A stretch of DNA of 22,747 nt, from the NCBI GenBank assembly GCA_035703635.1, contig DASSXV010000068.1, positions 1 through 22,747 on the forward strand, in the 5' to 3' direction. Below the pieces are notes generated by a model that ran no database searches, was not told the origin of the DNA, and worked only from the letters and a program-made list of their open reading frames with translations. Below, piece by piece: positions 4,912 to 20,492 of this stretch. Each line of letters starts with the position of its first letter. Positions within the stretch are counted from its first letter, which is position 1. Source of the stretch: Trueperaceae bacterium (GTDB taxonomy: Bacteria > Deinococcota > Deinococci > Deinococcales > Trueperaceae). The translations under genes were made by a program, and so were the position numbers.

Positions 4912-4966
4912 TGTCATGGCTTATGAAAAGCTATAACATATCGGGGCTGTTAGCCTTCATGAAGGC
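4912..4966. promoter_or_regulatory. AT-rich putative promoter/operator region upstream of the PIG-L gene
   Basis: TTAT-N8-ATAA dyad (4921-4936) and a perfect 14-bp palindrome gccttcatgaaggc (4953-4966) in a non-coding AT-rich patch. Confidence 0.4.
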
Positions 4967-5066
4967 GATTCAGTTGTTAGGTGCTATGGCTGTGTCAGGA
5001 TGCCTTATGGCTCGCGACTACAGGAAGTGGTTGCCTGTCAAGGGCTGCTCCACCCGAGTCTGTTGC

Positions 5067-5876
5067 TCAGTCGGCGGCCTCCGCTACGACCGTGTTGGTC
5101 AGGTCGCCAATCCTAGAGATGGAAACCGTCACAACGTCACCATCGACCAACCAGCGCTGCGGCTTGCGGCCCATCCCTACCCCTTGCGGCGTTCCGGTGA
5201 GGATCACAGTTCCTGCCTGCAAGGTCGTACCTGCGCTGAGAAACGCAATCAGGTCGGGGACGTCGAAGATCAGATCGCTCGTCGGAGAGTCTTGCATTAC
5301 CTCGCCGTTGATGGTGGTGCGAACATGAAGTTGGCTCGGATCCGGGATCTCATCCGCCGTAACCAGCACTGGCCCGAGCGGACAGAAGGTATCGAATGAC
5401 TTGCCGTACGACCATTGTCCGCCGCCCTTCTCGAGCTGCCAGTCCCGCGCACTTACGTCGTTTGCAACGGTATAGCCAAGAACGTAGTCCAGAGCGTCAG
5501 CTCGTGAAACGTCCTTGCAGGTGCGGCCGATCACTACTGCGAGTTCAACTTCGTAATCGACTTTGGTGCAAGGTTGGCCAGCTGGCAGCAATATTGGCGC
5601 GTCTGGACCTTGAACGCAAGAAACCGTCTTGTGGAACAGAATCGGGTACTTGGGTAGTTCCATTCCAGATTCGATGGCATGTTGGCGGTAGTTGAGCCCA
5701 ATTGCCAGTATGGCTGTCGGCACCAAGGGGGCCAGGCGTCGAACAATCTCGACACGCTGGCCCGTCACCTCGAACGCGGAGGTCAAGGCGCCGTCAATAG
5801 CAAGGGTGCTTCCGTCCGCCTGAAGGGCGGCGTGCACGATGGAACCGTCCGAAGTCAGGCCTCGAATAATCTGCAT
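5067..5876 (-). CDS. Fumarylacetoacetate hydrolase (FAH) family protein
   Basis: AIGLNYRQH, PILFHK, VDYEVELAVVIG, GYTVANDVSARD, GKSFDTFCPLGP and ILTGTPQGVG. SD gaaggag favours the ATG at 5876 over the TTG at 5879. Confidence 0.93.
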   Translation of the reverse strand: MQIIRGLTSDGSIVHAALQADGSTLAIDGALTSAFEVTGQRVEIVRRLAPLVPTAILAIGLNYRQHAIESGMELPKYPILFHKTVSCVQGPDAPILLPAGQPCTKVDYEVELAVVIGRTCKDVSRADALDYVLGYTVANDVSARDWQLEKGGGQWSYGKSFDTFCPLGPVLVTADEIPDPSQLHVRTTINGEVMQDSPTSDLIFDVPDLIAFLSAGTTLQAGTVILTGTPQGVGMGRKPQRWLVDGDVVTVSISRIGDLTNTVVAEAAD

Positions 5877-5894
5877 CAAAACTCCTTCTGCGCG

Positions 5895-7325
5895 TCAACT
5901 ATTGCGCGCAAGCTCACCAATTGTCGCTAAACATGCATCTCGGATGGCTTCATGGCAACCGCGATCCAGCGGCGTTTGCCACACTTCGTACATGTCGTAG
6001 TCGTACAACTCGCTAGGCGGCAAATAGCCGATTGAACCGTTGGTTACGTTCATCACGATAATGCGGTAATCAGGAAACGCTGACCTCAGATCCCTTTGCA
6101 GCGCGGTGAACGCTTCGCCGGGGTACCCGACAATGAAAGAGTCGCCCACCTTCCACACCCACACCGAGAAACGGTAGGTGTCGGCGTCCCCCAAGGTGCG
6201 CCGTAACCGGGCCTTTCGGGACCAGCGCTCTATGAGGTAAGGTTCCACGGCGGCAGCCAGTTCCCGATTGATCACTTCTAGGGTCGGATAATCGCTCTTG
6301 ACAGGCAGTGAGAGCTCGACCCTGCGTGCAGTAACGCCACGTGACGCTTCAGAAGCTGGCCGCGAACGCCACACGCCAAGCGGCGCGCCCGACTCGACGA
6401 CGCCCTCATATACCAGGTCTCTTCCCGGCTCGAGCATCCCCTCCAAGGTGGAGCAAACCGCCAAGCCCAGGCGCCTGCCGTGCTTGTCGGCCACCGCGAC
6501 GTCGCCTTCGTACTGCCAGGCTGGCGCCATCTCGCCAGCAGCCCCTAGAAGGAACATGCACGGGGCGCCGTCCGTCGCCGCCTCGACGGTCTCACGCATT
6601 GCGCCGATGTAATCAGGAGAGAGTTTCGTGTTGTCCCACGCCAGAGTCGTCGGATGGCACGCGTAGTTGACGACGGTGGCCAACTGCTTGCCGTCGCGAT
6701 CGGTTAACCGACCGACCATCAGTGTGTCGTCAGCGGGTCCGTGCGGGTGGTATCCCGTTAGGTAACGGCCGCCAGCTGGGTCGGGCAGGCTGCGTTGGGT
6801 GGCGAGGTCGCTACGCCCAGTGGCCCACACTAGTTCGCAATCCGCAATGGCCGCGAGTGCCTGGCGGCTGGCGTCCACGATCTGCGAACGCACCAGCTCG
6901 AGATACGGGGCAATTAGATGACCACCAGGCTTGCCTGCGTTCCCGATCGCTATGGACGGTCCGGCGTGCGTGTGGGACAAGCTGATCATTACGGCGGCCG
7001 GATCGAGGTCGAGCGCCTCAAGTACGCTTCCACGAACGAACTTCTCATCGGCCCCGTCCTGCCACCACCCAGCGTCTACGGCAACCAACACCACGGGTCG
7101 TGCGTTTGCGTTCTCGCGCAGCACCAAAGCCGTGACGCTAAACGGGCGGTGGACGCCGTCCGCGTTGTCTTTAAGCGCTGCGCCCCAGCTCCGAAAATAG
7201 ATATCTACGGGCGGCGTGATGTCGCGCCGCGCTACGCCAGCCTGCACATGCACGCGCGTGAAGAGCCGCGACTTCGGGGTGGGCGTTGGTTGCAAGCGTA
7301 CCGCCGAACTGACTTGGTCACTCAT
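5895..7325 (-). CDS. Neutral/alkaline ceramidase-like metal-dependent amidohydrolase, substrate unknown
   Basis: AGVARRDITPP, SLSHTHAGP, VVNYACHPT, LSPDYIG, FLLGAAGE, GYPGEAF and IGYLPP...YE motifs. No signal peptide. Confidence 0.75.
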   Translation of the reverse strand: MSDQVSSAVRLQPTPTPKSRLFTRVHVQAGVARRDITPPVDIYFRSWGAALKDNADGVHRPFSVTALVLRENANARPVVLVAVDAGWWQDGADEKFVRGSVLEALDLDPAAVMISLSHTHAGPSIAIGNAGKPGGHLIAPYLELVRSQIVDASRQALAAIADCELVWATGRSDLATQRSLPDPAGGRYLTGYHPHGPADDTLMVGRLTDRDGKQLATVVNYACHPTTLAWDNTKLSPDYIGAMRETVEAATDGAPCMFLLGAAGEMAPAWQYEGDVAVADKHGRRLGLAVCSTLEGMLEPGRDLVYEGVVESGAPLGVWRSRPASEASRGVTARRVELSLPVKSDYPTLEVINRELAAAVEPYLIERWSRKARLRRTLGDADTYRFSVWVWKVGDSFIVGYPGEAFTALQRDLRSAFPDYRIIVMNVTNGSIGYLPPSELYDYDMYEVWQTPLDRGCHEAIRDACLATIGELARNS

Positions 7326-7337
7326 GTGTTGACTGCC

Positions 7338-8516
7338 TCACCAATCCCCGACGCTGCCGTCGGCGTTGAACGACCGCTGCAGGATCTCCTGCTCGAACGG
7401 GTGCTTCGCGATCTCGGCCTCGTTCAGCTCTACGCCGAGCCCAGGCTTGCGGTTGGGTCGCACGATGCGACCCTCCTTCTCAACCGTGAACCCTTCCTGG
7501 ACAACGTCTGCACGCCAAGGGACGTCGCCATGGACGGTTTCACAGATGACGTAACTGGGTTGCGAGAACCCGAACTCGAGGGACGCGGCCGTGCTGACGG
7601 GCCCCTGCGGATTGTGCGGCGCAAGGGCAATCCGGTAGGCCTCGGCTAGGGCGGCGATGCGTCGCGCCTCGCTGAACCCACCACAGTGCGTGATGTCGAA
7701 CTGAACAACGTCGCACCCTTGTGCAGCGAACAAGTCGCGAAAGGCGGCTAAGTGAGTTAGACGTTCGCCCGTGGCTACCGGCGTCGTGAGCGATGCCCGA
7801 ATGTCGGCCAAGCCCTGCAAGGCCTCCGGCCAGCACGGCTCCTCGAAGAAGTAGAGGCCATAAGGCTCGAGCGCTTGACCGAACTTCATGCCCATGGCAG
7901 GGGATGGGCGTGCGTGGCAATCGACCATAATGTCGATGTCGTCACCAACCGCCTCGCGCATAGCCGAAACGTTGGCCTCGGCGTAGCGGATGGGCTTTAG
8001 GCCTTCAAGCGGCATAGTCTCGGGTACGGCCATGGCCTTGAAGGCAGTGAAACCGTCGGCAACCGCCGCGCGGGCCAAATCAGCGAAGCGTTCGGCGTCG
8101 TCAGGGCGAGTCCCGTAGAAGTCTTCCATGCGGCCGCCGCCCAGGTGCGAGTAGGTGCGGATGTAGTCGCGTACTGGCCCTCCCCAGAGCTGCGAGCATG
8201 GCACGCCAGCAACTTTGCCTGCTATGTCCCAGAGCGCCAAGTCGATTCCGGCGATGGCGGTCGAGCGTACGATGCCGTTGCCGTGCCAGAAATGCTGGCG
8301 GTACATCATCTGCCACAGGTACTCGACGCGGGTCGGGTCCTCGCCGATAAGTAGTTGCGAGAGGTCTTCGACTGCGCCAACGACCGAGCGCGTGTGCCAC
8401 TCGAGAGTGGCCTCGCCCCAACCGTAAAGGCCGTCCTGGTCCGTGATTACCTTGACGAACACCCAGTTACGCATGCGCGCGTTGCACACGAACGTCTCAA
8501 TGGCCGTGATCTTCAT
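7338..8516 (-). CDS. dgoD: Galactonate dehydratase-like enzyme (mandelate racemase subgroup, enolase superfamily)
   Basis: MKITAIETF...[27 protein letters not shown] (DgoD-type D-x-H), EEP, TGER, DITHCGG and APHNPQGP. True substrate uncertain because dgoK/dgoA are not in the window. Confidence 0.8.
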
Positions 8517-8541
8517 TCAGCGCCCCTTGCGAGTCGCGCGC

Positions 8542-9915
8542 TCATCCCATCTCCCCAACGATGCGCTCGGTTACCTCGAGCGTCTTGCTGATGTCGGCTG
8601 CGGTGTGGGCGAAAGAGATGCTGCCTTGCTTGGTAGGCGTGGGGAAGTGGAAGACGCCGTTCTCGATGAGACGGTTGCGGTACGCCTTGTCGCGCTCCAT
8701 GTCGTGGTGGCGGGCGATGTCGAGCCAGTCCTTTGGCGCATGGTCCATGAAATAGACGACGAAAGCAGAGCGCTGCCTCACAATCGTGACAGGGTAAGAG
8801 GCTCCGGCAAAGATGCGCTGCAGGCCCTCCTCCATCTGGGCACCCAAGGCGTCGGTGTGGCCGTAAATCTCGTCCGTGCGGCCACGCAGCTTTCGGAGGG
8901 TAGCTATGGCCGCAGCCACGGGGACGGGGTGTCCGTTGTAAGTACCTGCGATCAGGACGCGCTTCTTTGGGTCAGGGTCGGCAGCGTGCGCCATGACCTC
9001 ACGCTTGCCCCCAATGACGCCTAGCGGATAGCCATTGGCGATGGCCTTGCCGAACGTCGATAGGTCCGGGCGCACGCCGCACAGGCTCTGGTAGCCACCT
9101 AGAGCGTGCCGGAAGCCGGTCTTGACCTCGTCGAAGACAAGCACCGTGCCGTAGCGGTCGCACAGTTCGCGCAGGCCCTCGAGGTAACCAGGTTCTGGTT
9201 TGACGATTCCAACGTTCTGCAAGATCGGCTCGAGGATGAGAACGGCGATATCGCCGTCGCGCAGGACCTGCTCGGCAGCTGCAAGGTCGTTGAACTGAAT
9301 GACGTAAGTATTCGCTTTGACTGTCGCCGGAATACCTGTGCTTAGTGGCCGCAGGTTCAGACCGCGGCCGTCGTCCCGCGTGGTCTGGGCTTCGGCTGGG
9401 TCCATGAGGTTGAACGCAACGTCATCCTCCCAGCCGTTGTAGCCGCCTTGGACGAGTAGCACGCCGTCGCGGCCGGTGTGGGCGCGCGCCAGGCGAATGG
9501 CATAGGACGTCGCCTCCGAGCCCGTGTTAGTCACCTGGACCTGGTCGAGCGTCGGAACGCTTTCGACGATCAGTTCGGCGAGCTCTCCCTCCCAGGCAGT
9601 CGTGCCCGCCCCGAATAGCGAGGCGCCGCTCTTAATCACGTCAATGACGGCACCGTCCACCTCAGGGTCGCCGTGGCCGAGGAAGTACGGAGCGAAGGCG
9701 GCGTGATAGTCGATGAAGCGGTTGCCTTCGATGTCCCAGAGGTATGCGCCCTTACCCCGCTCGAATACTCGAACGGGTTCGATATGGCGATTCAGCGAGA
9801 AGAGCCCTCCCGGGATGTAACGCTGGTTGCGTTCCCAAATCCGCTGGGTGGCGGCCGCAAGGGAAGCACCCGGAGAGTTGGGGTTCGAAGCGTGGGTACT
9901 CTGCGTCTTCTGCAT
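8542..9915 (-). CDS. Class III PLP aminotransferase, glutamate-1-semialdehyde aminomutase-like (probably not HemL)
   Basis: GKGAYLWDIEGNRFIDY, NTGSEAT, ILEP, VFDEVKTGFR, TFGKAIANGYP and AGTYNGHP. SD ggagg favours the ATG at 9915/9918 over the GTG at 9960. Confidence 0.88.
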   Translation of the reverse strand: MQKTQSTHASNPNSPGASLAAATQRIWERNQRYIPGGLFSLNRHIEPVRVFERGKGAYLWDIEGNRFIDYHAAFAPYFLGHGDPEVDGAVIDVIKSGASLFGAGTTAWEGELAELIVESVPTLDQVQVTNTGSEATSYAIRLARAHTGRDGVLLVQGGYNGWEDDVAFNLMDPAEAQTTRDDGRGLNLRPLSTGIPATVKANTYVIQFNDLAAAEQVLRDGDIAVLILEPILQNVGIVKPEPGYLEGLRELCDRYGTVLVFDEVKTGFRHALGGYQSLCGVRPDLSTFGKAIANGYPLGVIGGKREVMAHAADPDPKKRVLIAGTYNGHPVPVAAAIATLRKLRGRTDEIYGHTDALGAQMEEGLQRIFAGASYPVTIVRQRSAFVVYFMDHAPKDWLDIARHHDMERDKAYRNRLIENGVFHFPTPTKQGSISFAHTAADISKTLEVTERIVGEMG

Positions 9916-10038
9916 CATCGCCTCCGCGTCGCGGGCTGCTACTTCCGCGCCTTTTCTCACATGGCCCGACTCGAGCTCGCTGACTCGCCTAGCGCGCTTG
10001 GAGTCAAATCCGTCCGGTCAACCGGCGGCCTTACGGTG

Positions 10039-10068
10039 AATCACATCGTATAATTTATCCTATATCGC
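10039..10068. promoter_or_regulatory. Divergent promoter core with putative operator half-sites
   Basis: The only AT-rich patch between the divergent genes. Perfect TATAAT at 10049-10054, with repeats ATCGTATA (10045-10052) and ATCCTATA (10057-10064). Confidence 0.55.
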
Positions 10069-10131
10069 ACGCAGGGGTGCCAGCTATCGGCGCGCGCTCC
10101 GATACCCGGCGCGCGCCACGGGAGGCAGACG

Positions 10132-11238
10132 TTGACTATCGAGAGCGTCGTCGCACATACGCTTCGGCTACAGCTCGAGCGCCCCGTGCGCACCAGCAAC
10201 CTCGTCATAAAGGAGCGCGAGTTCGTGTTCGTTGAGGTGCGGGCCCGCAAAGCTCCTGGCCTCTGCGGGTACGGTTTCGGCTTCACGCGCGGCGGTCTTG
10301 TTGCAGAGACAATCAACCGAACGCTTCGCCCACTGCTCGAGGGGCGCGAGTCGGGCGAGATTCACACGCGTTGGCGTGACATGTACCTCGGCACGCGCTA
10401 CCTGGGCAGGAAGGGACTGCTGATGCGGGCCATCAGCGCCGTTGACCTTGCCCTGTGGGATCTCAAGGGCAAAGCCATCGGGGCTCCCTTATGGAGCATG
10501 CTCGGGGGCTCGAGTACTCCGGTGCCAGCGTTCGTCGCAGGCGGTTACTACGGTCCAGGTACTGAACCAAGCGCCGTCGTTGAGGAGTTCGCTCAATACG
10601 CTGACGCTGGCTTCCAGGGCGCAAAGCTCAACGTCGGCGGGCTCAGCCTGGCAGCCGACATAGAGCGCGTTGCTGCCGCACGAACCGCCCTTGGTGAGGT
10701 CACAGCGCTCATGGTGGACTTCAACGGCTCCCTCCACGACGCTAAAGAAGGGTTGCGGTGGGCGGAAGCCCTCGCCCCGTTCAGGCCAGCCTTCCTCGAA
10801 GAGCCGTTCCTTATGGACGACCTCCCGTCACTCCGCGAGTTCTATGAACGTTGTGACTTGCCCGTAGCTCTGGGCGAAGACGAGTCGGGTCGCTGGGCTT
10901 TCGCCGAACTCATGCAGCCTCGCACCCTCGACGTTCTGCGCCATGACGCCACGCTCGTCGGTGGCGTCTCCGAATGGCTGAAGGTGGCCGGGCTGGGGCT
11001 TGCACACCGCGTTGACCTGTTCCCCCACTGGTTCCCCGAGGTACACATCCACCTGGCAGCGACATTCCCAGAATGCAAAGGCGTCGAGTTGATTGCGCCG
11101 GAAGCAGGCATCATGAACTTCCATGAACTACTCCACAACCCCGTTTCTCAACGCGGGGGTTACGCCGACGTGCCGGACGGGCCAGGGCTCGCGATCGAGT
11201 GGGACCTGGACGCCATCGAGAAGGCGGTGGTGGCGTGA
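10132..11238 (+). CDS. Mandelate racemase/muconate lactonising enzyme family protein
   Basis: AISAVDLALWDLKGK, metal ligands D(VDFN), E(EEP) and E(GED), and an H/D dyad (PHW, RHDA). TTG start after SD gggagg. Confidence 0.9.
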   Translation: MTIESVVAHTLRLQLERPVRTSNLVIKEREFVFVEVRARKAPGLCGYGFGFTRGGLVAETINRTLRPLLEGRESGEIHTRWRDMYLGTRYLGRKGLLMRAISAVDLALWDLKGKAIGAPLWSMLGGSSTPVPAFVAGGYYGPGTEPSAVVEEFAQYADAGFQGAKLNVGGLSLAADIERVAAARTALGEVTALMVDFNGSLHDAKEGLRWAEALAPFRPAFLEEPFLMDDLPSLREFYERCDLPVALGEDESGRWAFAELMQPRTLDVLRHDATLVGGVSEWLKVAGLGLAHRVDLFPHWFPEVHIHLAATFPECKGVELIAPEAGIMNFHELLHNPVSQRGGYADVPDGPGLAIEWDLDAIEKAVVA

Positions 11239-12041
11239 GCGGCGGTACGCAACCCAGAGGCAACCAGGGCCCTGACGGCCTAAGAGGACGAGTAGCGCTC
11301 ATTACAGGCGCCGCGCGCGGCATAGGCCTGGCGATCGCAACGGCCATGGCTCATGCTGGCGCCAAAGTCTCCCTTGCCGACGTGGACGGCGCGGCGGCTA
11401 GCGCCGCAGTAACGGAGTTGGCTGATCAGCCAGGCCTAACGCAAGCGGAACTCCACGCGGCCAGCGTCGACGTTAGCGATAGTGCTCAGGTTCGTACTTG
11501 GGTCGAGCAGGTAGGAGAGCGCTGGGGCAGCATCGACATCCTCGTGAACAACGCAGGTGTGCAGTTCAACTGCGCGGCAGAAGACCTGAGCGACGCCGAC
11601 TGGCAACGCGTTCTGGCGATCGACCTTACAGGTGCCTTTTACTGCAGCCGCGAAGCTGGCACCGTGATGCTGGCACAAGGCCGCGGCACCATCATCAACA
11701 TCGCCTCCATAGCTGCTCGCTTTGGAATGCCGCGCCGCTTGCCATACGTGGTGAGCAAAGCAGGGGTAACAGCGCTTACGCGCGGCCTAGCGACCGAATG
11801 GGCAGATCGTGGTGTACGGGTCAACGCAATCGGGCCTGGTTACGTCGAGACCGACTTAGTCCGATACGCCTTCGAGCAGGGCCACATCGACCGGGATGCC
11901 ATCGTCGCCAAGATCCCGATTGGTCGCCTTGCCCAGTCGCGTAGCATCGCCGACGCCGCGATTTTCCTCGCGTCAGACGCCGCGGATTACATCACGGGGC
12001 AGACGCTCTACGTCGATGGTGGGTACAGCGTCTTCAAGTGA
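11235..12041 (+). CDS. SDR family NAD(P)-dependent oxidoreductase
   Basis: TGAARGIG, Asp after beta-2 (LADVD, NAD preference), NNAG, S...YVVSK, RVNAIGPG and TGQTLYVDGG. The GTG at 11235 overlaps the upstream TGA (GTGA). Confidence 0.92.
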   Translation: MSGGTQPRGNQGPDGLRGRVALITGAARGIGLAIATAMAHAGAKVSLADVDGAAASAAVTELADQPGLTQAELHAASVDVSDSAQVRTWVEQVGERWGSIDILVNNAGVQFNCAAEDLSDADWQRVLAIDLTGAFYCSREAGTVMLAQGRGTIINIASIAARFGMPRRLPYVVSKAGVTALTRGLATEWADRGVRVNAIGPGYVETDLVRYAFEQGHIDRDAIVAKIPIGRLAQSRSIADAAIFLASDAADYITGQTLYVDGGYSVFK

Positions 12042-12076
12042 CGGTCCCGGTACAAGGTGCGGTAGCGACTTCAACG

Positions 12077-12862: not shown

Positions 12863-13635
12863 CTGCTCAACCACCCTCCATCAACTACCACCGTCGTGCC
12901 GTGCATGAAGTCCGATGCTGGCGATGCTAAGAACAGACATGCGCCGTCGATCTCGTCCGCCCTGCCCCAGCGTCCGGCTGGCACGCGCACCAGCAACTCG
13001 CGCTCCCTGACTGGGTCGGCCTTGAGGTCGGCCAGTAGGTCGGTGTCCATGTACCCGGGGGCAATTGCGTTTACGTTAACGCCGCGGCTGGCCCACTCGT
13101 TGGCAAGCGCTTGCGTGAGGCCCACCAACCCATGGCGGCTGGCAGCGTAAGCAGGCACCGTGTAGCCGCCCTGGAACGCCAGTACAGATGCGATGTTGAT
13201 GATCTTGCCTGACCCCTGCGCCAGCATCTCGCGCCCGGCCCGTAGGCATAGCGCGAACACGGTGCCCATGCTCAACTCCACCACTTCGTCCCACTCTGCT
13301 GCCGTCCACTCGAGCGCTGGCTTGCGCACGAAGGTGCCGGCGTTATTAACGAGCACGTCGACGCTGCCCCAACTGCTCAGGCACGTCGCAACAACTTCCT
13401 CCACCCCGGCGGGAGTGGTTTGGTCGCAGACCACCTGTACCGCCTCGCCACCCACAGCTCGAACGCGTTCGTGGGTGGCATCAAGGTTGGCCTGCCTACC
13501 GACCAGCACGAGTTTCGCGCCTGCACGCGCCAAGGCTACGGCCATAGAAGCACCAAGCCCGCGGCTCGCTCCCGTCACGATTGCGGACTTGCCAGTGAGA
13601 CCGAACAACTCTTCAAGGTAAGACAGAGACTCCAA
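12859..13635 (-). CDS. KduD-like SDR (2-keto-3-deoxygluconate dehydrogenase-like) with an atypical YxxxR motif
   Basis: TGASRGLG, NNAG, GKIINIASVLAFQGG..VPAYAASR, ANEWA..GVNVNAIAPGY, PAGRWG and VDGGWLSR closely follow KduD. SD tgaggag precedes the TTG. Confidence 0.85.
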   Translation of the reverse strand: MESLSYLEELFGLTGKSAIVTGASRGLGASMAVALARAGAKLVLVGRQANLDATHERVRAVGGEAVQVVCDQTTPAGVEEVVATCLSSWGSVDVLVNNAGTFVRKPALEWTAAEWDEVVELSMGTVFALCLRAGREMLAQGSGKIINIASVLAFQGGYTVPAYAASRHGLVGLTQALANEWASRGVNVNAIAPGYMDTDLLADLKADPVRERELLVRVPAGRWGRADEIDGACLFLASPASDFMHGTTVVVDGGWLSR

Positions 13636-13646
13636 TGTGCAGCTCC

Positions 13647-13790
13647 TCAGGTCATCTGGTGTGGGTCGAAGGCATCACGAACGGCGTCGCCGACAAAATT
13701 GAAGCTCAGGGCGGCCTCAACGAGGATGGCCACAGCGAAGGCAGGGGTTCGAGAGGAGCATGGGAACCGTGAGGTTGAGGTACACGGTGG
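13647..13790 (-). pseudogene. Remnant of a DppC/OppC-type ABC permease C-terminus
   Basis: 13742-13647 translates AFAVAILVEAALSF|NFVGDAVRDAFDPHQMT*, and a neighbouring frame just upstream gives NLTVPMLL. These match DppC motifs LPN..P, AIL.EAALSF and N..GD.LRDA.DP, with the intervening segment deleted. Confidence 0.75.
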
Positions 13791-13799
13791 TGGTCTACG

Positions 13800-14061
13800 C
13801 CAATTGACGTGTAGAGGTCCGCGACAACTGAGTGGGTGACGCCACCGACAAGGCGGATGTCGGTGGCGACCGCCTCAAGTGCGCTCGCGCTGCGACCGGC
13901 CATGCAAACGCTGGCTCCCTGGGCGGCATGTGCCACGGCCATGGCAGTGCCGAAGGGCGGCTCGCTCCCGTCACCAAGGTGCGCTTGCCTACTAGCGGCC
14001 CCGAACCCGGAGACCCATGACTTCGGGCGTACGCGGCTGTCTCACCGTCAGGCACGATCAT
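13800..14061 (-). pseudogene. Frameshifted, truncated SDR N-terminus
   Basis: The ATG at 14061 is coupled to the upstream stop (TGATG): MIVPDG...LVGKRTLVTGASR. After a frameshift near 13955 it continues FGTAMAVAHAAQGASVCMAGRSASALEAVATDIRLVGGVTHSVVADL. No catalytic half follows. Confidence 0.8.
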
Positions 14062-14891
14062 CAGTACCCTCCAGCCAGAGCCAGGGCGTTGGCGGACATT
14101 CCGCCATCGACCACGATCTCGATTCCAGTGATAAATGAGGCATCGTGCGAGCACAGGAACGCGGCGGTGGCGGATACGTCGTCCGGGACGCCGCGGCGGC
14201 CGACTGGATGACGCGCCCTAACTTCCTCTGCGCGCGCAGCCGCTGCTGCCGGCTCCATAGCGTCGAGCTGAGCCTGCCAAATGGCCGTGTCGATGTAACC
14301 AGGGGAGATTGCGTTGACACGCACATTCGGCCCAAGGTCCAGGGCTAGGGCGCGAGTCATGCCAAGCACGCCAGCCTTCGCCCCGCTGTATGCGACGTAG
14401 CCCTTCGCCGAGAACCATGCCATGACCGACGAGATATTGACGATCGCACCCTGGCCCGTGGCGACGAGGTGCGGTGCAGCAGCGCGCGACACGCGGTATA
14501 CCCCACCTAGATCGATATCCATCACGCGCGCATATTCTGCCTCGGTTAGCTCGGCGAGTGACGTGCCGCCAGACACCCCTGCAGAGTTCACGAGATGATC
14601 GATGCGACCATGATCAGTGACGACGGCCGCGATTAGTTCGTCGACGGACGCAGCATTGGCTACGTCAACGTGGAATGCGGTCGCCCGCACGCCGCTACCT
14701 CTCACCTCTGCAGCGGCGGCTTCGGCCGCGGACATGTCGATGTCGGCAATCACGACAGTGGCACCCAGCGCGGCGAAGCGCCGTGCGACGCCTTGGCCAA
14801 TGCCTGAGCCACCGCCGGTCACGATCGTGACCGTGTCTGCAAAGGGCCTATTGCCGGTCATCTGGCTCGTCTTGCCGTCATGCTCACCCAC
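14061..14891 (-). CDS. SDR family NAD(P)-dependent oxidoreductase
   Basis: TGGGSGIG, IADID, NSAG, NISS, YSGAK, RVNAISPGYIDT and ITGIEIVVDGG. SD aagggag favours the GTG at 14891 (alternative ATG at 14912). Confidence 0.92.
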   Translation of the reverse strand: MGEHDGKTSQMTGNRPFADTVTIVTGGGSGIGQGVARRFAALGATVVIADIDMSAAEAAAAEVRGSGVRATAFHVDVANAASVDELIAAVVTDHGRIDHLVNSAGVSGGTSLAELTEAEYARVMDIDLGGVYRVSRAAAPHLVATGQGAIVNISSVMAWFSAKGYVAYSGAKAGVLGMTRALALDLGPNVRVNAISPGYIDTAIWQAQLDAMEPAAAAARAEEVRARHPVGRRGVPDDVSATAAFLCSHDASFITGIEIVVDGGMSANALALAGGY

Positions 14892-14930
14892 GTAATTCTC
14901 CCTTCGCGCCATTCGGTGCGGGAAAATACT

Positions 14931-15947
14931 TCATGCCCTGCTCCACACGCGCTCGCGCCCGCGCATGCCTATACGCGCGAAGCCTCTCGCTACCAGCGCC
15001 TCAAGGTGCGCTTGCACGCTGAAGGCAGCGGTTACAGACGGCTCCACGCCGGGCGCCGCCACAGGCACTACCTCTCCGGTTAGTTCCCTCAAAGTCATGT
15101 CATCTCGGAGGGCGGCCCGAACTGCACCATCAAGGCGCCGCACGAACGCCTCGCTGAGATCGCAAAACGCCGTCACCCGTGAACCGCGCATGACCGGGAA
15201 GTGGGCCGTGCATAGCACCTTGACTCCAAGGTGGCGGATTCTGCTGATGGTGCCAAGGTAAGCGGCCACATCGAGGTAAGACGGGATCGCGTCCAGTTTC
15301 CCACCCGCCCACTGCCCATCACCTAGGATCGCGTCCGACGCCAACAACACGCCGCGCTCAGCGTTCCACAGACCAATGTGTCCGGCGGAGTGCCCTGGTA
15401 AAGGCACCACGCTCAACTGCCCACCATTAGCAAGTGGGAAACGGTCGCCAGATACCAAAGCCGTGACCGGCGTCGGCGACCCAAGCAAGCTGGCCACCCA
15501 CTTCTTGGCTGCCGCTGGCGTGGGGTACTCGAGCTCCAGCCAGTCGTAGTATTCGCTCAGGTGCAAGTCAGGGTCACTCGCCCAGGCCACGTCGTTCTCA
15601 TGCGCGTAAAGGCGGCAAGCCGGGTTAGCCGCTAGCAGCTCCGCATTACCGCCGAAGTGGTCGGCGTGGGCGTGGCAAATAACGCCCGTGTCGATTACTG
15701 CGCCGGGCTGCAACTGTTGGAGCGCTGGCAGGACCAGGGCGTCGATATTGCCGACGCAACCCGTATCAGTAACCAACCACCCCGCCTGCGTGCCGGGCTG
15801 CTCCGGCCGCACTGGCTGGTCGACGGCTTCAACAGGACCAACGCCCTCAACCAAGTAGAGCGCAAGTGGCATGCTGGTGCCGGTCACGACCGTGTCGATG
15901 CGGTGCAGTCCATCGTCTACCTGCGATAGTCCGGCGGCGCCGTTCAC
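14931..15947 (-). CDS. MBL-fold metallo-hydrolase with a C-terminal winged-helix-like tail
   Basis: DTG, HAHADH, PGHSAGH, SDA and TAH metal-binding motifs, plus AHLEALVARG at the C-terminus. The start is uncertain: GTG 15947 (coupled to a mini-ORF) or GTG 16001. Confidence 0.87.
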   Translation of the reverse strand: MNGAAGLSQVDDGLHRIDTVVTGTSMPLALYLVEGVGPVEAVDQPVRPEQPGTQAGWLVTDTGCVGNIDALVLPALQQLQPGAVIDTGVICHAHADHFGGNAELLAANPACRLYAHENDVAWASDPDLHLSEYYDWLELEYPTPAAAKKWVASLLGSPTPVTALVSGDRFPLANGGQLSVVPLPGHSAGHIGLWNAERGVLLASDAILGDGQWAGGKLDAIPSYLDVAAYLGTISRIRHLGVKVLCTAHFPVMRGSRVTAFCDLSEAFVRRLDGAVRAALRDDMTLRELTGEVVPVAAPGVEPSVTAAFSVQAHLEALVARGFARIGMRGRERVWSRA

Positions 15948-16031
15948 GTGTTTGCACTTGCGGCGATGAACCTCATTACCCTCCGCCTCCTTCTGGAACA
16001 CCTACTTGCCCGGACTTCCGGCGTCGCGATG

Positions 16032-16895
16032 TCACACCTTGAGTTTGGGGTCGAGCGCGTCGCGCAGCCCATCTCCCAGTAAGTTCGCAGCTAATACGGT
16101 GAGCGCAATGGCTGTTCCAGGGAACACCCCGAGCCACCACGCCTGTCGAATGAACTGGCGCCCATCGGAGAGGATCGCGCCCCATTCAGGCGCCGGAGCC
16201 TGAGCACCTAGGCCGAGGAAGTTCAGCGCTGCTCCGGCAAGGATGGCGTTGGCGATACCCATGGACGCCATCACCATCACGGGCGTGAGGATGTTCGGAA
16301 GTACGTGCCGCAGCATTATTCGGGCGTTTCCGCTTCCGAGGGCGCCTGCGGCGTCGACATATACGCGTCCGCGCGCCTCAAGGACGGAACTCCGCACCAT
16401 TCTCGTGTAGTACGGAACCCAGGCTATGCCAAGGGCGATCATGATGTTCGTCAGTCCAGTCCCCAATATCGTCACCACCGCTAGGGCAAGCAAGATCGGT
16501 GGGAACGCGATCCACACGTCCACGAAGCGCATAAGGAGTAGGTCAAGCCAGCCGCCATAGAACCCGGCGGCCAGGCCGAGCAAGATGCCAGCGATGGCGG
16601 CCAGCGAGATCGGCACCACGCCCATCGGCAGCGAGAGGCTCCCGCCGTATAGGACGCGGGCAAACACGTCGCGACCGAAGTGGTCGGTGCCGAACAGGTG
16701 CTCGGTACTAGGTGGTTGCAGCCGGTCGCGTGGACTCACTTTCGTCGGATTGTATGGAGTCAGTACTGGCGCCAGCAGCACTATTACAACGAGGATCGTC
16801 ATCAGCGAAGCTCCGGCAACGAAGCTAGGCGTGCGGCGTAGCCTGCTCAGCGTTTGCGCAAGCGGGGTTCTATTGCGAGGAGCGGCAGTCGTCAT
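16032..16895 (-). CDS. ABC transporter permease, DppC/OppC type
   Basis: HLFGTDHFGRD, EAA-like loop YVDAAGALG, HVLPN, FLGLG..P.PEWG and NLLGDGLRDALDP. Confidence 0.95.
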   Translation of the reverse strand: MTTAAPRNRTPLAQTLSRLRRTPSFVAGASLMTILVVIVLLAPVLTPYNPTKVSPRDRLQPPSTEHLFGTDHFGRDVFARVLYGGSLSLPMGVVPISLAAIAGILLGLAAGFYGGWLDLLLMRFVDVWIAFPPILLALAVVTILGTGLTNIMIALGIAWVPYYTRMVRSSVLEARGRVYVDAAGALGSGNARIMLRHVLPNILTPVMVMASMGIANAILAGAALNFLGLGAQAPAPEWGAILSDGRQFIRQAWWLGVFPGTAIALTVLAANLLGDGLRDALDPKLKV

Positions 16896-17812
16896 TCGTA
16901 CCTAATCCTGGGATCGATGAACGCGTAAAGGGCATCAACCGTGAGGTTTACGAGCACGTACAGCACGGCGGCTACGAGAACGACACCTTGCACCACGGGC
17001 GCGTCGCGGTTGATTACGGCCTTCGTAACAAGCGTCCCGAGGCCCTGCCGTGCGAACACGTTCTCGATCACGACCGCGCCTCCTATCAGGGTCCCGAACT
17101 GCATTCCGAACATCGTCAACACGGGAATGAGCGCGGCACGGAAGGCGTGTCGCAGCACGACGGGGCGCATCCCCAGCCCTTTGGCTTTGGCGGTCCGGAC
17201 GAAGTCTTCCCTGAGTACCTCTAGTAGACTCGCCCGCGTCAAACGCGCGAGGACCGCGGATTCCGCGACCCCAAGCGCGATGGCAGGCATGATCAAGGGC
17301 CGTAACCCATGCCCGGTAATCGGCAGCCAACCGAACTGCACCGAGAAGAACTGAATCATCATCAACCCAAGCCAGAAACCCGGGATCGAGATGCCGATAA
17401 GCGCTACGGTCATTCCGCTTAAGTCGAGCCAAGTGTTGTGGCGCAGGGCCGCTATCATGCCGAGTGGCAGGCCGAGGATGACGGCGACTCCCATTGCAGC
17501 GACAGTGAGCTCTAGCGTGGCCGGGAAGTTCTCCCGGATGAGCCGCAACACTGGGTGATACCCGAAGAACGACACGCCGAGGTCGCCTTTGAGCAGTCCA
17601 GCAAGATAATTCCCGAGACGTACGAAGAGCGGGTCATCTAGCCCAAGTTGGCGGCGTAGTAGCGCCATCTGGTCGGGCGCTAGTTTCACCTGGGTCATCA
17701 TGGCGGATACTGCGTCGCCCGGAATAAGGGCGATGACGAAGAACACGACGATGGCGATGCCGAGTAGCACGGGCACCGTCAAGAGAAGTCGTCTTCCGAG
17801 ATAACCGATCAC
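16892..17812 (-). CDS. ABC transporter permease, DppB/OppB type
   Basis: RRLL..VPVLLG, LGLDDP, GDLG.S, PATLEL, DFVRTAKAKGL, GGAVVIE.VF and DPRIRY. The start is GTG 17812 or TTG 17845. It overlaps the dppC-type gene by 4 bp. Confidence 0.95.
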   Translation of the reverse strand: MIGYLGRRLLLTVPVLLGIAIVVFFVIALIPGDAVSAMMTQVKLAPDQMALLRRQLGLDDPLFVRLGNYLAGLLKGDLGVSFFGYHPVLRLIRENFPATLELTVAAMGVAVILGLPLGMIAALRHNTWLDLSGMTVALIGISIPGFWLGLMMIQFFSVQFGWLPITGHGLRPLIMPAIALGVAESAVLARLTRASLLEVLREDFVRTAKAKGLGMRPVVLRHAFRAALIPVLTMFGMQFGTLIGGAVVIENVFARQGLGTLVTKAVINRDAPVVQGVVLVAAVLYVLVNLTVDALYAFIDPRIRYE

Positions 17813-17856
17813 GAGCGCAACATTGCTGTCCTGTCGACCGCACAATCTATTTGAGG

Positions 17857-17890
17857 GGTTGGGGAGTCCCAGAAGCAGGGCTCCCCAACC
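17857..17890 (-). terminator. Intercistronic stem-loop after the substrate-binding protein gene (mRNA stabiliser or partial terminator)
   Basis: Perfect 10-bp stem ggttggggag (17857-17866) / ctccccaacc (17881-17890), extended by ccc/ggg. No long U tract. Confidence 0.65.
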
Positions 17891-17902
17891 TGCGAAACTC
17901 GT

Positions 17903-19519
17903 TCAGTCGGCGAACGACGCTCCGGCGAAGTACTTGTAGTAGCCAGTGCCGTCCACCACGAAGCCGGTCAGGTTCTTGTCGTGAGCAGCGTAGAAGTACA
18001 GCTCGAAGATGGGAACCATCATGGCGTTGTCCATAATGAAGTGCTGGATCTCGTGGTACTTGGCGGTGCGGGCAGCGTCGTCGGTCTCTACCCCTGCGGC
18101 CGCGAGCATCTCGTCCAGTTCCGGACCTTGCCAGAAGTGGCCGCTTGGGAAGGTGCCGTAGCCTTCCGAGCTCCAGTCGCGCGTCATCAAGGTAGCAGTG
18201 GCGAACACGTCGCCCATCGCCGGGGCTGCGTACTGACCTGACGCGACGGCCGCCGTGTTGGACGGGCCCTGAGTGGTTAGGACGCTAGCGTCGAAACCGA
18301 CATCCTGCAAGTACGCTTGCATGAGGTAAACCCAGTCGTTCCAGCTCTTGTTCTCGACGAGCACGACCTTAAGGGTCACGCCGTCCTTCTCGCGCACGCC
18401 GTCGTTGTTAGTGTCGACCCAGCCAGCGTCGGTCAGGAGCTGCTCGGCCTTCTCTGGATCGTACGGGTACATGGTTTCGAGTGACGGGTCATACTCAGGG
18501 AAGTTATTCGACAGGGGGCCGTACGCTGGAACTGTCATGCCGAAGTAGACGGTGTCGACTATTCCCTGCTTGTCGACCGCGTAGTTGATTGCCTGGCGCA
18601 CGGCGAGCTCGTTGGTCGGGGACATGTTCGTGTTCAGGTAGTTCATCTGTGGCATTCCTGGCAGCTGGAAGCCGCTTACGGCGAACGCTTCAGAGTCGCG
18701 AATTCGTGCGATATCGGCGAATGGCAACATGTCGAGGAACTGCGTCTCGCCCGCTTCCAGTGTTGCTAGCCGCGTTTGGGCCTCTGGAATGAACTGGAAC
18801 ACTAGCTCGTCAAGAAGGGCGGGGCCGGACGTGCCGAACATCGGGGAGCCCCAAGTCCAGTTGGGGTTGCGTACCAGCGTGATGTGGCTGCCGCTGACCC
18901 ATTCCTTGAACATAAAAGGTCCAGTGCCGATAGGGTTGTAGCCGCCCTCTTGGCCGACCTCAGTGATGTAGGCGATGTCGGAAACGCCGAAACCAGGGTC
19001 GGCTAGCTCGATGAGGAGATCAGGGCGTGGCGCCTTGAAGGTCACGGTGACGTCATTGCCATCGACACTCACACCAGCAAGTGGTTCAGAGAGCTGGCTC
19101 CAACTACCGCCAAGCAGTTCCGTGTTCGTGCGGGCGAAGTCGAACTGATCGGCCACACCCTGCGCAGTGAGCGCGTCGCCGTTATGGAAGGTGACACCAC
19201 TGCGGATCGTGAACGTCCACTCCGTCTTCTCGTCATTAGCCGACCAGGCCGTTGCGAGACCAGGATAGATGGTGTAGTCCTGTGCGAGGTATACGAGCGT
19301 CTCGAATATCTGTGCGGTCACCTCGCGCTCGTTGACGTTGCGACTACCGAGAGTTGGATCTAGGCTAGACGGTTCTTGATTGCCCGCGAACACGAGGCGA
19401 TTTGCGCTAGCTTGGGCGAAAGCTGCACCCCCGACGGCCAAGCCCAGCGTAAGTAGGCCTACCAGGGTTAAGAGCCGAACGATGCGGAATGAACGCGAGT
19501 GCTGTCGAGACTGACTCAT
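17903..19519 (-). CDS. ABC transporter substrate-binding protein, family 5 (peptide/nickel type)
   Basis: Signal peptide ending AFA-Q with no lipobox. SLDP, IFETLV, PGLATAW, FHNGD.LTA, PIGTGPF, VRQAINYAVD and YDPEKA..LL.DAGW. SD ggagg; start ATG 19519 or TTG 19525. Confidence 0.95.
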   Translation of the reverse strand: MSQSRQHSRSFRIVRLLTLVGLLTLGLAVGGAAFAQASANRLVFAGNQEPSSLDPTLGSRNVNEREVTAQIFETLVYLAQDYTIYPGLATAWSANDEKTEWTFTIRSGVTFHNGDALTAQGVADQFDFARTNTELLGGSWSQLSEPLAGVSVDGNDVTVTFKAPRPDLLIELADPGFGVSDIAYITEVGQEGGYNPIGTGPFMFKEWVSGSHITLVRNPNWTWGSPMFGTSGPALLDELVFQFIPEAQTRLATLEAGETQFLDMLPFADIARIRDSEAFAVSGFQLPGMPQMNYLNTNMSPTNELAVRQAINYAVDKQGIVDTVYFGMTVPAYGPLSNNFPEYDPSLETMYPYDPEKAEQLLTDAGWVDTNNDGVREKDGVTLKVVLVENKSWNDWVYLMQAYLQDVGFDASVLTTQGPSNTAAVASGQYAAPAMGDVFATATLMTRDWSSEGYGTFPSGHFWQGPELDEMLAAAGVETDDAARTAKYHEIQHFIMDNAMMVPIFELYFYAAHDKNLTGFVVDGTGYYKYFAGASFAD

Positions 19520-19735
19520 CTGCAAGTAACCTCCGTTTGGACGGGTGTTCTACGATGAAGCGCGTGCGTGAGGTGTTTAGGACTAGTGGTCGTGGGATAG
19601 CTCCCAAATCAAGCGGGAGTAGTTTCGGGCCGCAGCGAAAAACGGATTCACTGGGTCCACGTGCCGCCGACGCTTCCTCCTTTTCGTATGGTCCTCCGCC
19701 TTGTGCCCGAGCCGGCGGGTGAGTGTGGCTTGTCT

Positions 19736-19770
19736 CTATTTTATATAATCTAACATGCGCTAGAATGCAA
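19736..19770. promoter_or_regulatory. Divergent promoter/operator between the ABC operon and gntR
   Basis: AT-rich near-palindrome ATTTTATATAAT (19738-19749) containing TATAAT, and TAGAAT at 19761-19766. Confidence 0.55.
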
Positions 19771-19797
19771 GGCCGGGGACCCGGGAGGCTATTGAGC

Positions 19798-20478
19798 ATG
19801 ATGCGGACGAAGCAAGACTACGCCTATCAAGTCATCAAGGGCCGCATTACTGCAGGCGACCTTCTACCTGGTCAACGCATAGTGGTTAACCGGTTAGGGC
19901 ACGAGATCGGCACTAGCGCCATTCCCGTGCGGGAGGCACTGCTCCGGCTAGAAGCCGAAGGCTTAGTCACCCTTACGCCCCACATCGGGGCCGTCGTCTC
20001 GCTCATCACAGGCGAGACGATTAAGCGAACGCTCGAGTCAATGGCCGTCCTAGAGGGGTACGCCACACGTCTCGCACTCCCGCGCGCAAGCGAGATCCTA
20101 GACGCCTTGAAGCACGATGACGCCATGATGGCGGCGGCTCTTGAGGCCGAGGACTGGGAAGCGTTCAGTGCCGGTAACCGCAAATTCCACTTCACCATCT
20201 ACGGTGTCTGCGATAACGACATATTGACCAACTCAATCCAGTCGTTGTGGGGTCAGCTTGACTCCTACCTAAGCGCTGCAGCCTTCTACTTGATGCCGGA
20301 CCGGGCCCAAGGATCGATCAACGAGCATCACGCCATCATGGACATGCTCGCAAACACGGAAACCGATCCGCTGCAACTCGAGCTTGCCGCACGCGAACAC
20401 AAGCTCAATACGGCTCGGCGACTACAACTTCAAGACCGTAGGTTCGCGCCAAGTCTGGCGGCCGCAGCCTCGCGGTAA
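19798..20478 (+). CDS. GntR family transcriptional regulator (FCD ligand-binding domain)
   Basis: AY..IK.RI..G.L.PGQRI, S.IPVREAL.RLEAEGLV, N.KFH..I, EH.AI and REH motifs. SD gggagg precedes ATG 19798; the listed 19723 start is too long. Confidence 0.93.
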   Translation: MMRTKQDYAYQVIKGRITAGDLLPGQRIVVNRLGHEIGTSAIPVREALLRLEAEGLVTLTPHIGAVVSLITGETIKRTLESMAVLEGYATRLALPRASEILDALKHDDAMMAAALEAEDWEAFSAGNRKFHFTIYGVCDNDILTNSIQSLWGQLDSYLSAAAFYLMPDRAQGSINEHHAIMDMLANTETDPLQLELAAREHKLNTARRLQLQDRRFAPSLAAAASR

Positions 20479-20492
20479 GAGGAGCGGGCCCC

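Follow-up and report, generated by a model that had tools for sequence, protein, structure and literature searches.

A kinase-free catabolic gene cluster from a Truepera-like bacterium that may act on an amide-bearing sugar acid

What would a bacterium break down with an importer, two enolase-superfamily enzymes, three short-chain dehydrogenases (SDRs), an aminotransferase, a ceramidase-like amidohydrolase, a hydrolase of the metallo-beta-lactamase (MBL) fold, an FAH-family enzyme and a protein of the acetoacetate decarboxylase (ADC) fold, all encoded side by side? This question is raised by positions 5067-20478 of a 22,747-nt stretch of DNA from a Trueperaceae bacterium (contig DASSXV010000068.1), the whole of which we call the window. 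Our answer is tentative and falls somewhat short of even confidence: the region may be a catabolic cluster of a Truepera-like bacterium in which three modules together break down an imported sugar acid that bears an amide (N-acyl or amino), with no phosphorylation step. This answer builds on what was observed: which families the genes belong to, which active-site residues are conserved, and which gene pairs and operon order recur in relatives.

A four-gene core and the modules beside it

The 21 open reading frames (ORFs) of at least 100 aa in the window were scanned against Pfam and NCBIfam. Every family that the initial annotation had placed in the region is present in the ORF list and in these searches, and its remark that kinases and phospho-aldolases are missing agrees with the absence of any match to kinase or aldolase families among the 21 ORFs.

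At the centre lies module B, a core of two gene pairs. The first is Eno2, an enolase-superfamily enzyme predicted to be an acid-sugar dehydratase or cycloisomerase (10132-11238, plus strand; PF13378, PF02746), paired with the dehydrogenase SDR_A (11199-12041, plus strand; PF13561/PF00106). SDR_A probably starts downstream of its 40-nt overlap with Eno2, its domain beginning at residue 31. The second pair is a KduD-like SDR (12859-13635, minus strand) and the ADC-like protein, an ADC-fold Schiff-base enzyme of a subfamily found in sugar clusters (12077-12874, minus strand; PF06314, E 1.8e-49); these two genes overlap by 16 nt. The Eno2-SDR_A pair converges on the ADC-like gene, with stop codons 35 nt apart.

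On one side of the core is module A, a putative importer with its companions, all on the minus strand: a family-5 (Dpp/Opp/Nik-type) solute-binding protein (SBP) with an N-terminal signal peptide (17903-19525; PF00496, E 1e-74), a DppB/NikB-like permease (16892-17845; PF00528, PF19300), a DppC/NikC-like permease (16032-16895; PF00528, PF12911), the MBL hydrolase, which belongs to a small family (14931-16001; PF00753), and the dehydrogenase SDR_C (14061-14912; PF13561/PF00106). These genes are tightly packed, with gaps of 57, -4, 30 and 18 nt, and the annotated MBL start is likely some 20-40 codons too early. On the other side is module C, a putative operon on the minus strand with gaps of 25, 12 and 15 nt, which comprises the class-III aminotransferase AT3 of the GSA-aminomutase-like group (8542-9960; PF00202), the DgoD-like (galactonate-dehydratase family) enolase-superfamily enzyme Eno1 (7338-8516), the ceramidase-like protein, a short zinc amidohydrolase of the ceramidase fold with the catalytic domain only (5895-7325; PF04734, 38.6 bits), and the FAH-family enzyme of the diketo-acid hydrolase/HpcE group (5067-5879; PF01557, E 2e-77). 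A regulator of the GntR/FCD family (19723-20478, plus strand; PF00392, PF07729) is divergent from the SBP gene. The spacing fits three tight units plus a regulator.

Could chance explain this neighbourhood? Relatives of the ADC-like protein were found 533 times in species-representative genomes, and the best 80 loci, which span at least nine phyla, were searched with 20 window proteins by tblastn (E≤1e-10, at least 50% query coverage). The closest locus, L001, is a contig of a Truepera radiovictrix metagenome-assembled genome, with 91% protein identity for the ADC-like protein and 87% DNA identity across the region. In a tree of 82 ADC-like sequences the window falls in a clade of nine rows (SH-aLRT 99) made up of the window, four Trueperaceae, three Paenibacillus and one other, which includes all of L001-L008.

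The four-gene core recurs in this clade at 53-93% identity. The KduD-like SDR is directly upstream of the ADC-like gene in L001-L008 (58-93%), and Eno2 (53-68%) and SDR_A (54-66%) are adjacent to each other in L002-L008. Counted over all 80 loci at 45% identity or above, the KduD-like SDR is found in 11, SDR_A in 12, Eno2 in eight and FAH in 15, while Eno1, AT3, the ceramidase-like protein, MBL and SBP each appear in a single locus; at any identity the ceramidase-like protein is present in eight loci (up to three copies per locus), SBP in four and MBL in two.

Two Trueperaceae loci join the core to one or the other of the outer modules. L004 carries AT3 (70%), Eno1 (80%), the ceramidase-like protein (51%) and FAH (59%) in the window's order beside the core, with Eno1 directly after AT3 and FAH ending the operon; a GlcD-like FAD oxidase gene follows, which fits a hydroxy-acid product. 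L006 carries SBP (66%), the permeases (71% for the DppB-type, 69% for the DppC-type), MBL (50%) and SDR_C (51%) upstream of the KduD-like-ADC pair, in the order SBP, permeases, creatininase-family gene, enolase-superfamily gene, MBL, SDR_C, KduD-like SDR and ADC, with SDR_A and Eno2 convergent. In all, L004 keeps eight of the enzymes and L006 nine of the genes, so the refuting condition named in the initial annotation, that the genes do not co-occur in other genomes, does not hold. A further hint comes from homolog lists: ADC-like, ceramidase-like and MBL homologs appear with identical longest-contig sizes (22093, 36641, 28845 and 21636 nt), and further pairs match at other sizes, the matching sizes also including 24142, 37205 and 67127 nt, as if the three families travelled together on at least four further contigs. 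This recurrence of core and modules makes the cluster more than a chance neighbourhood, and a modular one.

Modularity also opens the door to another explanation, namely that the region is a catabolic island where two or three independent sugar-acid routes (the core; AT3 with the DgoD-like enzyme, amidase and FAH; the importer with MBL) lie side by side, each with its own substrate. We regard this as possible, if on the doubtful side. It gains from several points that weigh against a single shared pathway. The modules are apart in relatives: L006 has no AT3, ceramidase-like or FAH gene, L004 lacks MBL and has another importer (SBP 24%), and transport in the Paenibacillus loci relies on SBP_bac_1 transporters. 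The regulator has one match in the 80 loci (29%, in L051) and no counterpart in L001-L008. The intergenic regions yielded no shared operator or palindrome; the inverted repeats in them, for instance one of 5+2+5 at 10014, are short and not shared. The coincidence of contig sizes, finally, is indirect. Against separate routes stand the direct placement of module C beside the core in L004 and of module A beside it in L006, the ceramidase-like paralogs inside the core of seven loci (L002, L004, L005, L008, L027, L030 and L057), and the same contig sizes as a hint of co-travel. The initial annotation's proposal of one pathway is weakened by the separate modules in relatives, the unconserved GntR gene and the missing common operator.

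The junction between modules A and B bears on the same choice. The 425 bp at 13636-14060 (minus strand) are a non-gene rearrangement scar with remnants of an SDR and a DppC-type permease. By blastx, about 13790-13969 encodes a 60-aa fragment of an SDR N-terminus that is 47% identical to an SDR of L004, and about 13650-13745 holds the last codons of a second, lost DppC-type permease, 95% identical over 20 aa to the end of the L001 permease PermC. By blastn, L001 2622-4482 corresponds to window 13709-11849 at 87%, and in L001 a permease of another importer directly precedes the KduD-like-ADC pair. The fragment order matches the arrangement in L004, and probably a single deletion removed a second, L004-type importer from the window's lineage. 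The present arrangement would then be recent, which again favours the island, as does the importer directly upstream of the pair in the closest relative. The terminator scan found no terminator-like site within the scar, so read-through from SDR_C is possible.

The ADC-like protein in sugar-acid surroundings

What does an ADC-fold protein do in such a cluster? Its similarity is to true ADC structures (3bgt, 3c8w and 3bh2, E about 1e-35), against E values of 0.2-0.26 only for the other ADC-named PDB entries 6eej, 3cmb and 4zbo. Catalytic roles in Clostridium ADC belong to the Schiff-base Lys115, its neighbour Lys116, Glu76, Arg29 and Glu61. In the alignment Lys115/Lys116 correspond to K131/K132 and Glu76 to E87; Arg29 aligns with T40 and Glu61 with H72, so both are replaced, and an invariant arginine, R38, sits two residues before the Arg29 position. 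Over a residue set of 80 subfamily members (the window, 77 of the 80 loci and two plasmid homologs; L019, L056 and L073 omitted), R38, H72, E87, K131 and K132 are kept in all 80, and none has Arg at the Arg29 position or Glu at the Glu61 position. The protein therefore resembles the true enzymes of Clostridium and Chromobacterium (3bh2, 3bgt) in its PF06314 fold, Lys-Lys pair and Glu76 equivalent, and differs from them in the replaced Arg29/Glu61 equivalents, the new invariant Arg/His pair and the sugar-acid context.

Two homologs of 33% identity from ketone-body or CoA contexts offer a comparison. Both keep the Arg and the Glu; the Rhizobium homolog also keeps Lys-Lys, and the Burkholderia homolog has Val at the second Lys. 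Their neighbours are a patatin and a 3-hydroxybutyrate dehydrogenase gene in the one type of context, or CoA-transferase genes in the other, and 2.0 changes per site lie on the branch that separates them from the ADC-like subfamily.

The subfamily itself keeps other company. ORFs within 8 kb of the ADC-like gene in 81 loci (window included) were clustered and their representatives named by Pfam. The most frequent neighbours are SDRs (66 of 81 loci) and enolase-superfamily enzymes (54), followed by GFO/IDH/MocA oxidoreductases (38), sugar ABC ATPases (35), D-2-hydroxyacid dehydrogenases (34), ribose-type permeases (33), xylose-isomerase-like TIM barrels (26), GntR/FCD regulators (25), FAH enzymes (17) and ceramidase-like proteins (9). 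In most loci a dehydrogenase gene, either an SDR or a D-2-hydroxyacid dehydrogenase, adjoins the ADC-like gene, and the annotated plasmid examples have an L-rhamnose mutarotase and a rhamnose-type SBP nearby. A ketone-body context (3-hydroxybutyrate dehydrogenase, CoA transferase) was encountered neither in the window nor in the 80 loci, only around the 33% homologs. Such sugar-type neighbours indicate that the ADC-like subfamily belongs to sugar or sugar-acid catabolism.

The replaced Arg29/Glu61 equivalents mean that decarboxylation is not guaranteed, and this too counts against the route that we propose. An alternative is that the ADC-like protein works on a 2-keto-3-deoxy acid as a Schiff-base aldolase or dehydratase, and so supplies the missing aldolase or a Weimberg-type dehydration. 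It would then resemble the Schiff-base 2-keto-3-deoxy-acid dehydratases and the aldolase-dehydratases of the ADC superfamily, in which MppR and Sbi00515 carry out aldol and dehydration chemistry. The replacements in 80 of 80 members, the lack of an aldolase in the window, and the enolase-family dehydratase, a likely source of 2-keto-3-deoxy acid, within 8 kb in 54 of 81 loci are all in keeping with this idea. Yet the protein is similar to the true decarboxylases and not to 6eej, 3cmb and 4zbo, and its Lys-Lys pair and Glu76 equivalent are invariant; moreover, where FAH co-occurs with the ADC-like gene (17 of 81 loci) a C-C cleaving step is already provided. On balance we think aldolase or dehydratase activity unlikely.

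The proposal of decarboxylation can be taken further, although we would call the following version speculative and improbable as a whole. The ADC-fold subfamily with the R38/H72 signature would be an unrecognised beta-keto sugar-acid decarboxylase which, with its adjacent dehydrogenase, forms a new route that shortens the carbon chain of acid sugars without phosphorylating them. The Truepera/Paenibacillus clade would have joined this route to a ceramidase-fold zinc deacylase and a GSA-aminomutase-like enzyme, and the combination would consume N-acyl amino-sugar acids, for example aldonic-acid ends from oxidative attack on chitin or other amino-polysaccharides.

The subfamily is widespread in soil and aquatic Alphaproteobacteria, Chloroflexota, Bacteroidota and other groups. 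In Alphaproteobacteria (about 45 loci, together with L081, Shinella plasmid 9938-21257, and L082, Chelativorans plasmid 9992-17544) the ADC-like gene lies in compact operons with genes for an enolase-family enzyme, a CtBP-like D-2-hydroxyacid dehydrogenase, a GFO/IDH/MocA oxidoreductase, a xylose-isomerase-like TIM barrel, L-rhamnose mutarotase, a rhamnose-type ABC transporter and, often, FAH. These operons look like a separate, uncharacterised monosaccharide pathway.

Amide hydrolysis, dehydration and import

If the substrate carries an amide, which protein would open it? Our best candidate is the ceramidase-like protein. Its AlphaFold2 (AF2) model (pLDDT 93.8) has bacterial and human neutral ceramidase as its only real structural neighbours: Foldseek gives E values of 1e-23 to 1e-26 and TMq of 0.65-0.67 against 2zxc, 2zws and 4wgk at 13-18% identity, and a profile of 38 family members matches 2zws at E 1.4e-26. 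Family residues H118, H120, H224, E404, Y434 and Y446 align with H97, H99, H204, E411, Y448 and Y460 of the 2zws chain; within the 38-sequence alignment each of the six is either invariant or conserved to at least 90%. Among the 2zws residues, H97, H204, E411 and Y448 are those that we take to be the zinc ligands. Judged by this alignment, the protein keeps a complete neutral-ceramidase zinc site.

The likeness to the neutral ceramidases of P. aeruginosa (2zws/2zxc) and human (4wgk) thus covers the catalytic-domain fold and all aligned zinc-site residues, and the differences are the low identity, the absent C-terminal domain (about 465 aa against 630-690) and the lack of a lipid context. The protein itself has 476 aa and ends after the catalytic domain, compared with 630-688 aa in the structural targets. 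The simplest reading is that it acts as a zinc amidase on an N-acyl amino sugar or sugar acid.

The wider family is large: of the 8000 candidates scored, more than 5000 were homologs at E≤1e-10, nearly all of them unnamed. Some Atlas neighbours are fused to GlcNAc-2-epimerase-like or lectin-like domains, and a homolog of 28% identity on a Nitratireductor plasmid lies among NagB/6PGL-like, SIS, amidohydrolase, sugar ABC and uronate genes; another, of 25%, on an Agrobacterium pAt plasmid has an esterase and a multicopper oxidase nearby and is uninformative. In L004 three ceramidase-like paralogs (31%, 29% and 51%) occur within 18 kb, at 702-2102, 7820-9211 and 16393-17856, from which it appears that the family has diversified inside this type of cluster.

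Other genes with a carbon-nitrogen theme lie near the core in relatives. Creatininase-family amidohydrolase genes are present within 8 kb of the ADC-like gene in four lineages (L006 5239-7365, L027 3024-4978, L057 about 1685-4520 and L010 12848-14647); an enolase-superfamily gene is their immediate neighbour in L006, in L027 and, judged by coordinates, in L057, and L010 has two copies in tandem. In Paenibacillus, genes of RidA, an imine/enamine deaminase family, directly follow the ADC-like gene in L007 (10733-11137) and the ceramidase-like gene in L008 (14063-14491), which hints at an enamine or imine intermediate. Creatininase-family and RidA genes strengthen the theme in the non-proteobacterial clades, and their company, together with that of the ceramidase-like protein, favours an aminated or N-acylated substrate, as the initial annotation had expected. 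Its narrower suggestion of a cyclitol or aminoglycoside found no specific support, and a sugar acid is the more likely substrate.

Both enolase-superfamily proteins score as acid-sugar dehydratases, which agrees with the role first given to them, and both score well above the muconate-cycloisomerase model, the sole MLE-type model among their NCBIfam matches. Eno1 passes the galactonate-dehydratase cut-off (NF010624, 322.8 against 311 bits) and reaches 243 bits with PDB 3rr1. In NCBIfam Eno2 stays below cut-off with its best matches, talarate/galactarate dehydratase (168.6 bits) and arabinonate dehydratase (167.5 bits), and its nearest structures are 2ovl, 5olc, 5xd7 (3,6-anhydro-L-galactonate cycloisomerase) and 2pp0 (talarate/galactarate dehydratase).

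AT3 stays below the curated cut-offs for HemL, the glutamate-1-semialdehyde (GSA) 2,1-aminomutase (TIGR00713, 326.5 against 527.3 bits; NF000818, 347.8 against 398 bits). Among PDB entries it scores 262 bits with GSA aminomutase (GSAM), 196 with 4zm3, 194 with 6k8h and 158 with D-phenylglycine aminotransferase; the C-6' aminotransferases of the NeoB/GenB type, to which it had been likened, reach only about 110 bits against that 262, which makes the link weak. D-phenylglycine aminotransferase acts on a D-alpha-amino acid, and its place in this group makes a 2-amino-2-deoxy-aldonate a reasonable substrate for AT3. On a Mesorhizobium plasmid a homolog of 61% identity adjoins an IlvD/Edd dehydratase gene, non-homologous to the enolase family, so that the pairing of aminotransferase and sugar-acid dehydratase recurs.

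The remaining enzymes are placed less closely. The KduD-like SDR falls below the TIGR01832 cut-off for KduD, the 2-dehydro-3-deoxy-D-gluconate 5-dehydrogenase (303.3 against 338.85 bits), and is close enough to it to make a related substrate plausible. SDR_C, whose gene adjoins MBL in L006, is above the cut-off of a glucose-1-dehydrogenase-like subfamily model (NF005559, 226.7 against 215 bits). FAH has 2,4-didehydro-3-deoxy-L-rhamnonate hydrolase as its best NCBIfam match (NF053535, 239.2 bits against a cut-off of 500) and scores 193-195 bits with PDB 6v77, 1gtt and 8gsr (8gsr 193), consistent with the diketo-hydrolase type proposed for it.

For MBL, of which 66 homologs were found at E≤1e-15, the HxHxDH motif and the further His/Asp ligands are invariant. 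The AF2 model (pLDDT 92.9, residues 1-20 disordered) is nearest to the uncharacterised MBL proteins 5i0p, 2zo4 and 5u8o and then to LACTB2 and the thioesterase PqsE, with no characterised lactonase among the nearest structures; these speak neither for nor against the lactonase role assigned to it at first. No glycosidase, sugar 1-dehydrogenase or lactonase could be confidently assigned in the window, a further point on the unfavourable side.

What the importer brings in is also a question. The SBP has a hydrophobic leader visible in its translation, and its best PDB matches are 5u4o, NikA, HbpA, GsiB, DppA, AgaA and AccA (E 1e-42 to 1e-18), which point to no particular ligand class; the ligands of its nearest relatives are nickel complexes, peptides, haem or opines and not sugars, which tells against a sugar-acid cargo. 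The window has no ABC ATPase gene beside the importer, and SBP5-type importers likewise devoid of their own ATPase genes are found in L004 (4350-7805), L006 (1914-5347) and L027 (10906-14578) as in the window (16032-19525); the ATPases would be shared or encoded elsewhere.

It might then be argued that a peptide, opine or metallophore-like conjugate is what the importer takes up, and that the cluster degrades this and not a sugar acid. SBP and permeases do match nickel, glutathione, dipeptide, oligopeptide and staphylopine systems best in NCBIfam, with NikA, DppA, AgaA and AccA among the PDB matches, and amide hydrolases and aminotransferases are frequent in the window, with gamma-glutamyltransferase, PIG-L, amidase and class-V aminotransferase genes in the flanks. 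However, none of these transporter scores reaches its equivalog cut-off, the two enolase-family proteins look by score like acid-sugar dehydratases, and relatives of the core are accompanied by sugar ABC transporters, mutarotase, GH2 and CE2 genes. The flanking genes, moreover, are not conserved beside relatives: tblastn gave no counterpart of PrpD, gamma-glutamyltransferase, PIG-L or the class-V aminotransferase in the 80 loci, and a single 28% match of the amidase, in L035. We consider this explanation very unlikely.

A possible route, its parallels and the flanks

How might the pieces work together on an amide-bearing sugar acid? What we infer is every substrate, the order of the steps and the service of all three modules to one compound. 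The compound would enter through the SBP5 system, and the ceramidase-like zinc amidase would take off its N-acyl group. AT3 may then remove or shift the amine of a sugar acid that resembles a D-alpha-amino acid; in relatives, RidA-assisted deamination after an enolase-type beta-elimination is conceivable. Eno1 or Eno2 would dehydrate the product to a 2-keto-3-deoxy acid, followed by SDR oxidation; within the core, Eno2 would dehydrate or cycloisomerise an acid sugar and SDR_A would act on what it forms.

Two exits can be imagined. FAH could cleave a 2,4-diketo acid to pyruvate and a hydroxy acid. Alternatively, the KduD-like SDR and the ADC-like protein could form a two-enzyme oxidative decarboxylation, the first oxidising the hydroxyl beta to the carboxylate and the second forming a Schiff base via Lys131 with loss of CO2. 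Candidate beta-keto acids are a 3-oxo-aldonate or a 2,4-diketo-3-deoxy-aldarate, and in the aldarate case the product would be 5-hydroxy-2,4-dioxopentanoate, a known type of FAH substrate. An SDR that makes 3-oxo sugar acids has a precedent in PMC12994016. The route described there, through L-threonate 3-dehydrogenase and 3-oxo-tetronate decarboxylase, is alike in that an SDR oxidises the 3-hydroxyl to a beta-keto acid before CO2 is lost; it differs in phosphorylating before decarboxylation and in using a class-II-aldolase-type decarboxylase, whereas the cluster has no kinase and an ADC fold (PMC12994016).

Is any of this a known pathway? The non-phosphorylative diketo-hydrolase routes for L-rhamnose, L-fucose and pentoses (LRA1-3, 5, 6 type), which run through an aldonate dehydratase, a 2-keto-3-deoxy-acid 4-dehydrogenase and an FAH-family hydrolase, come near; the cluster likewise has an enolase-superfamily dehydratase, SDRs and FAH and neither kinase nor aldolase. 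The dehydratase level is reached by Eno1 (NF010624) and not by Eno2, and FAH matches at family level only, far from its equivalog. Unlike those routes, the cluster adds the ADC-like protein, the zinc amidase, the aminotransferase and a Dpp-type importer and has no assignable sugar 1-dehydrogenase or lactonase. The D-galactonate DgoD/K/A pathway shares the DgoD-level score; the kinase DgoK and the aldolase DgoA are not in the window.

The ong pathway of oxidative chitin use is the nearest parallel on the nitrogen side. According to PMC9537276, it converts GlcNAc1A to GlcN1A (OngB) and then to KDG (OngC), which passes to KdgK. Both would follow the logic of deacylating an N-acetyl amino-sugar acid, taking off its amine and going on from a 2-keto-3-deoxy acid, and RidA genes belong to both (here in the relatives L007 and L008). 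The D-aminoacylase-type deacetylase, the D-amino-acid-deaminase-type PLP enzyme, KDG kinase, GH20 and SSS transporter of that pathway are absent from the window's 21 ORFs (PMC9537276). In its way of working the cluster resembles the diketo-hydrolase routes and the ong pathway, and it belongs to neither.

No described pathway that matches the cluster was found in the literature searched, as the initial annotation had surmised, and a megablast of the whole cluster against plasmids gave no match. The ADC-like and ceramidase-like proteins represent two enzyme families with no described role in sugar metabolism in that literature, which also yielded no paper that ties ADC-fold or short ceramidase-like proteins to sugar-acid clusters, with most subscription journals lying outside the search. 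If the proposed route is right, two large families whose annotation goes no further than "acetoacetate decarboxylase" and "ceramidase N-terminal domain protein" would acquire functions in carbohydrate turnover. The ong pathway and the D-glucosaminate PTS route would also be joined by a third solution for the breakdown of amino-sugar acids. The ADC-like subfamily is so widespread that its reaction would fill a gap in many genome-scale metabolic reconstructions. The interest of all this is limited by a real chance that the modules serve different compounds.

Some minor features of the window complete the description. A sigma-70 promoter scan returned none where 3.4 were expected, terminator-like sites numbered seven against 11.5 expected and are uninformative, and Rfam gave nothing at gathering score over the window. 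Three candidates were rejected: the ORF at 4923-5399 (plus strand) is an opposite-strand shadow of FAH; that at 13795-14154 (minus strand) lies inside the scar, overlaps SDR_C and has no Pfam or NCBIfam match; and a leaderless GntR start at ATG 19755 behind TATAAT at 19744 is out of frame with the ORF.

The flanks add further C-N enzymes: on the plus strand a C-terminal fragment of PrpD/MmgE (2-577) and a gamma-glutamyltransferase that passes the TIGR00066 cut-off (707-2407), and on the minus strand a class-V aminotransferase-like protein (20493-21683) and an amidase-signature amidase truncated where the window ends (21803-22747). At 2546-4792 (minus strand) a 748-aa secreted protein is encoded, with a signal peptide, a PIG-L/LmbE-type de-N-acetylase domain and NPCBM-associated, Ig-like and CBM9 domains. 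Its gene follows FAH on the same strand after a gap of 274 nt, a position kept in none of the 80 loci, and the protein could supply deacetylated fragments of amino-polysaccharides.

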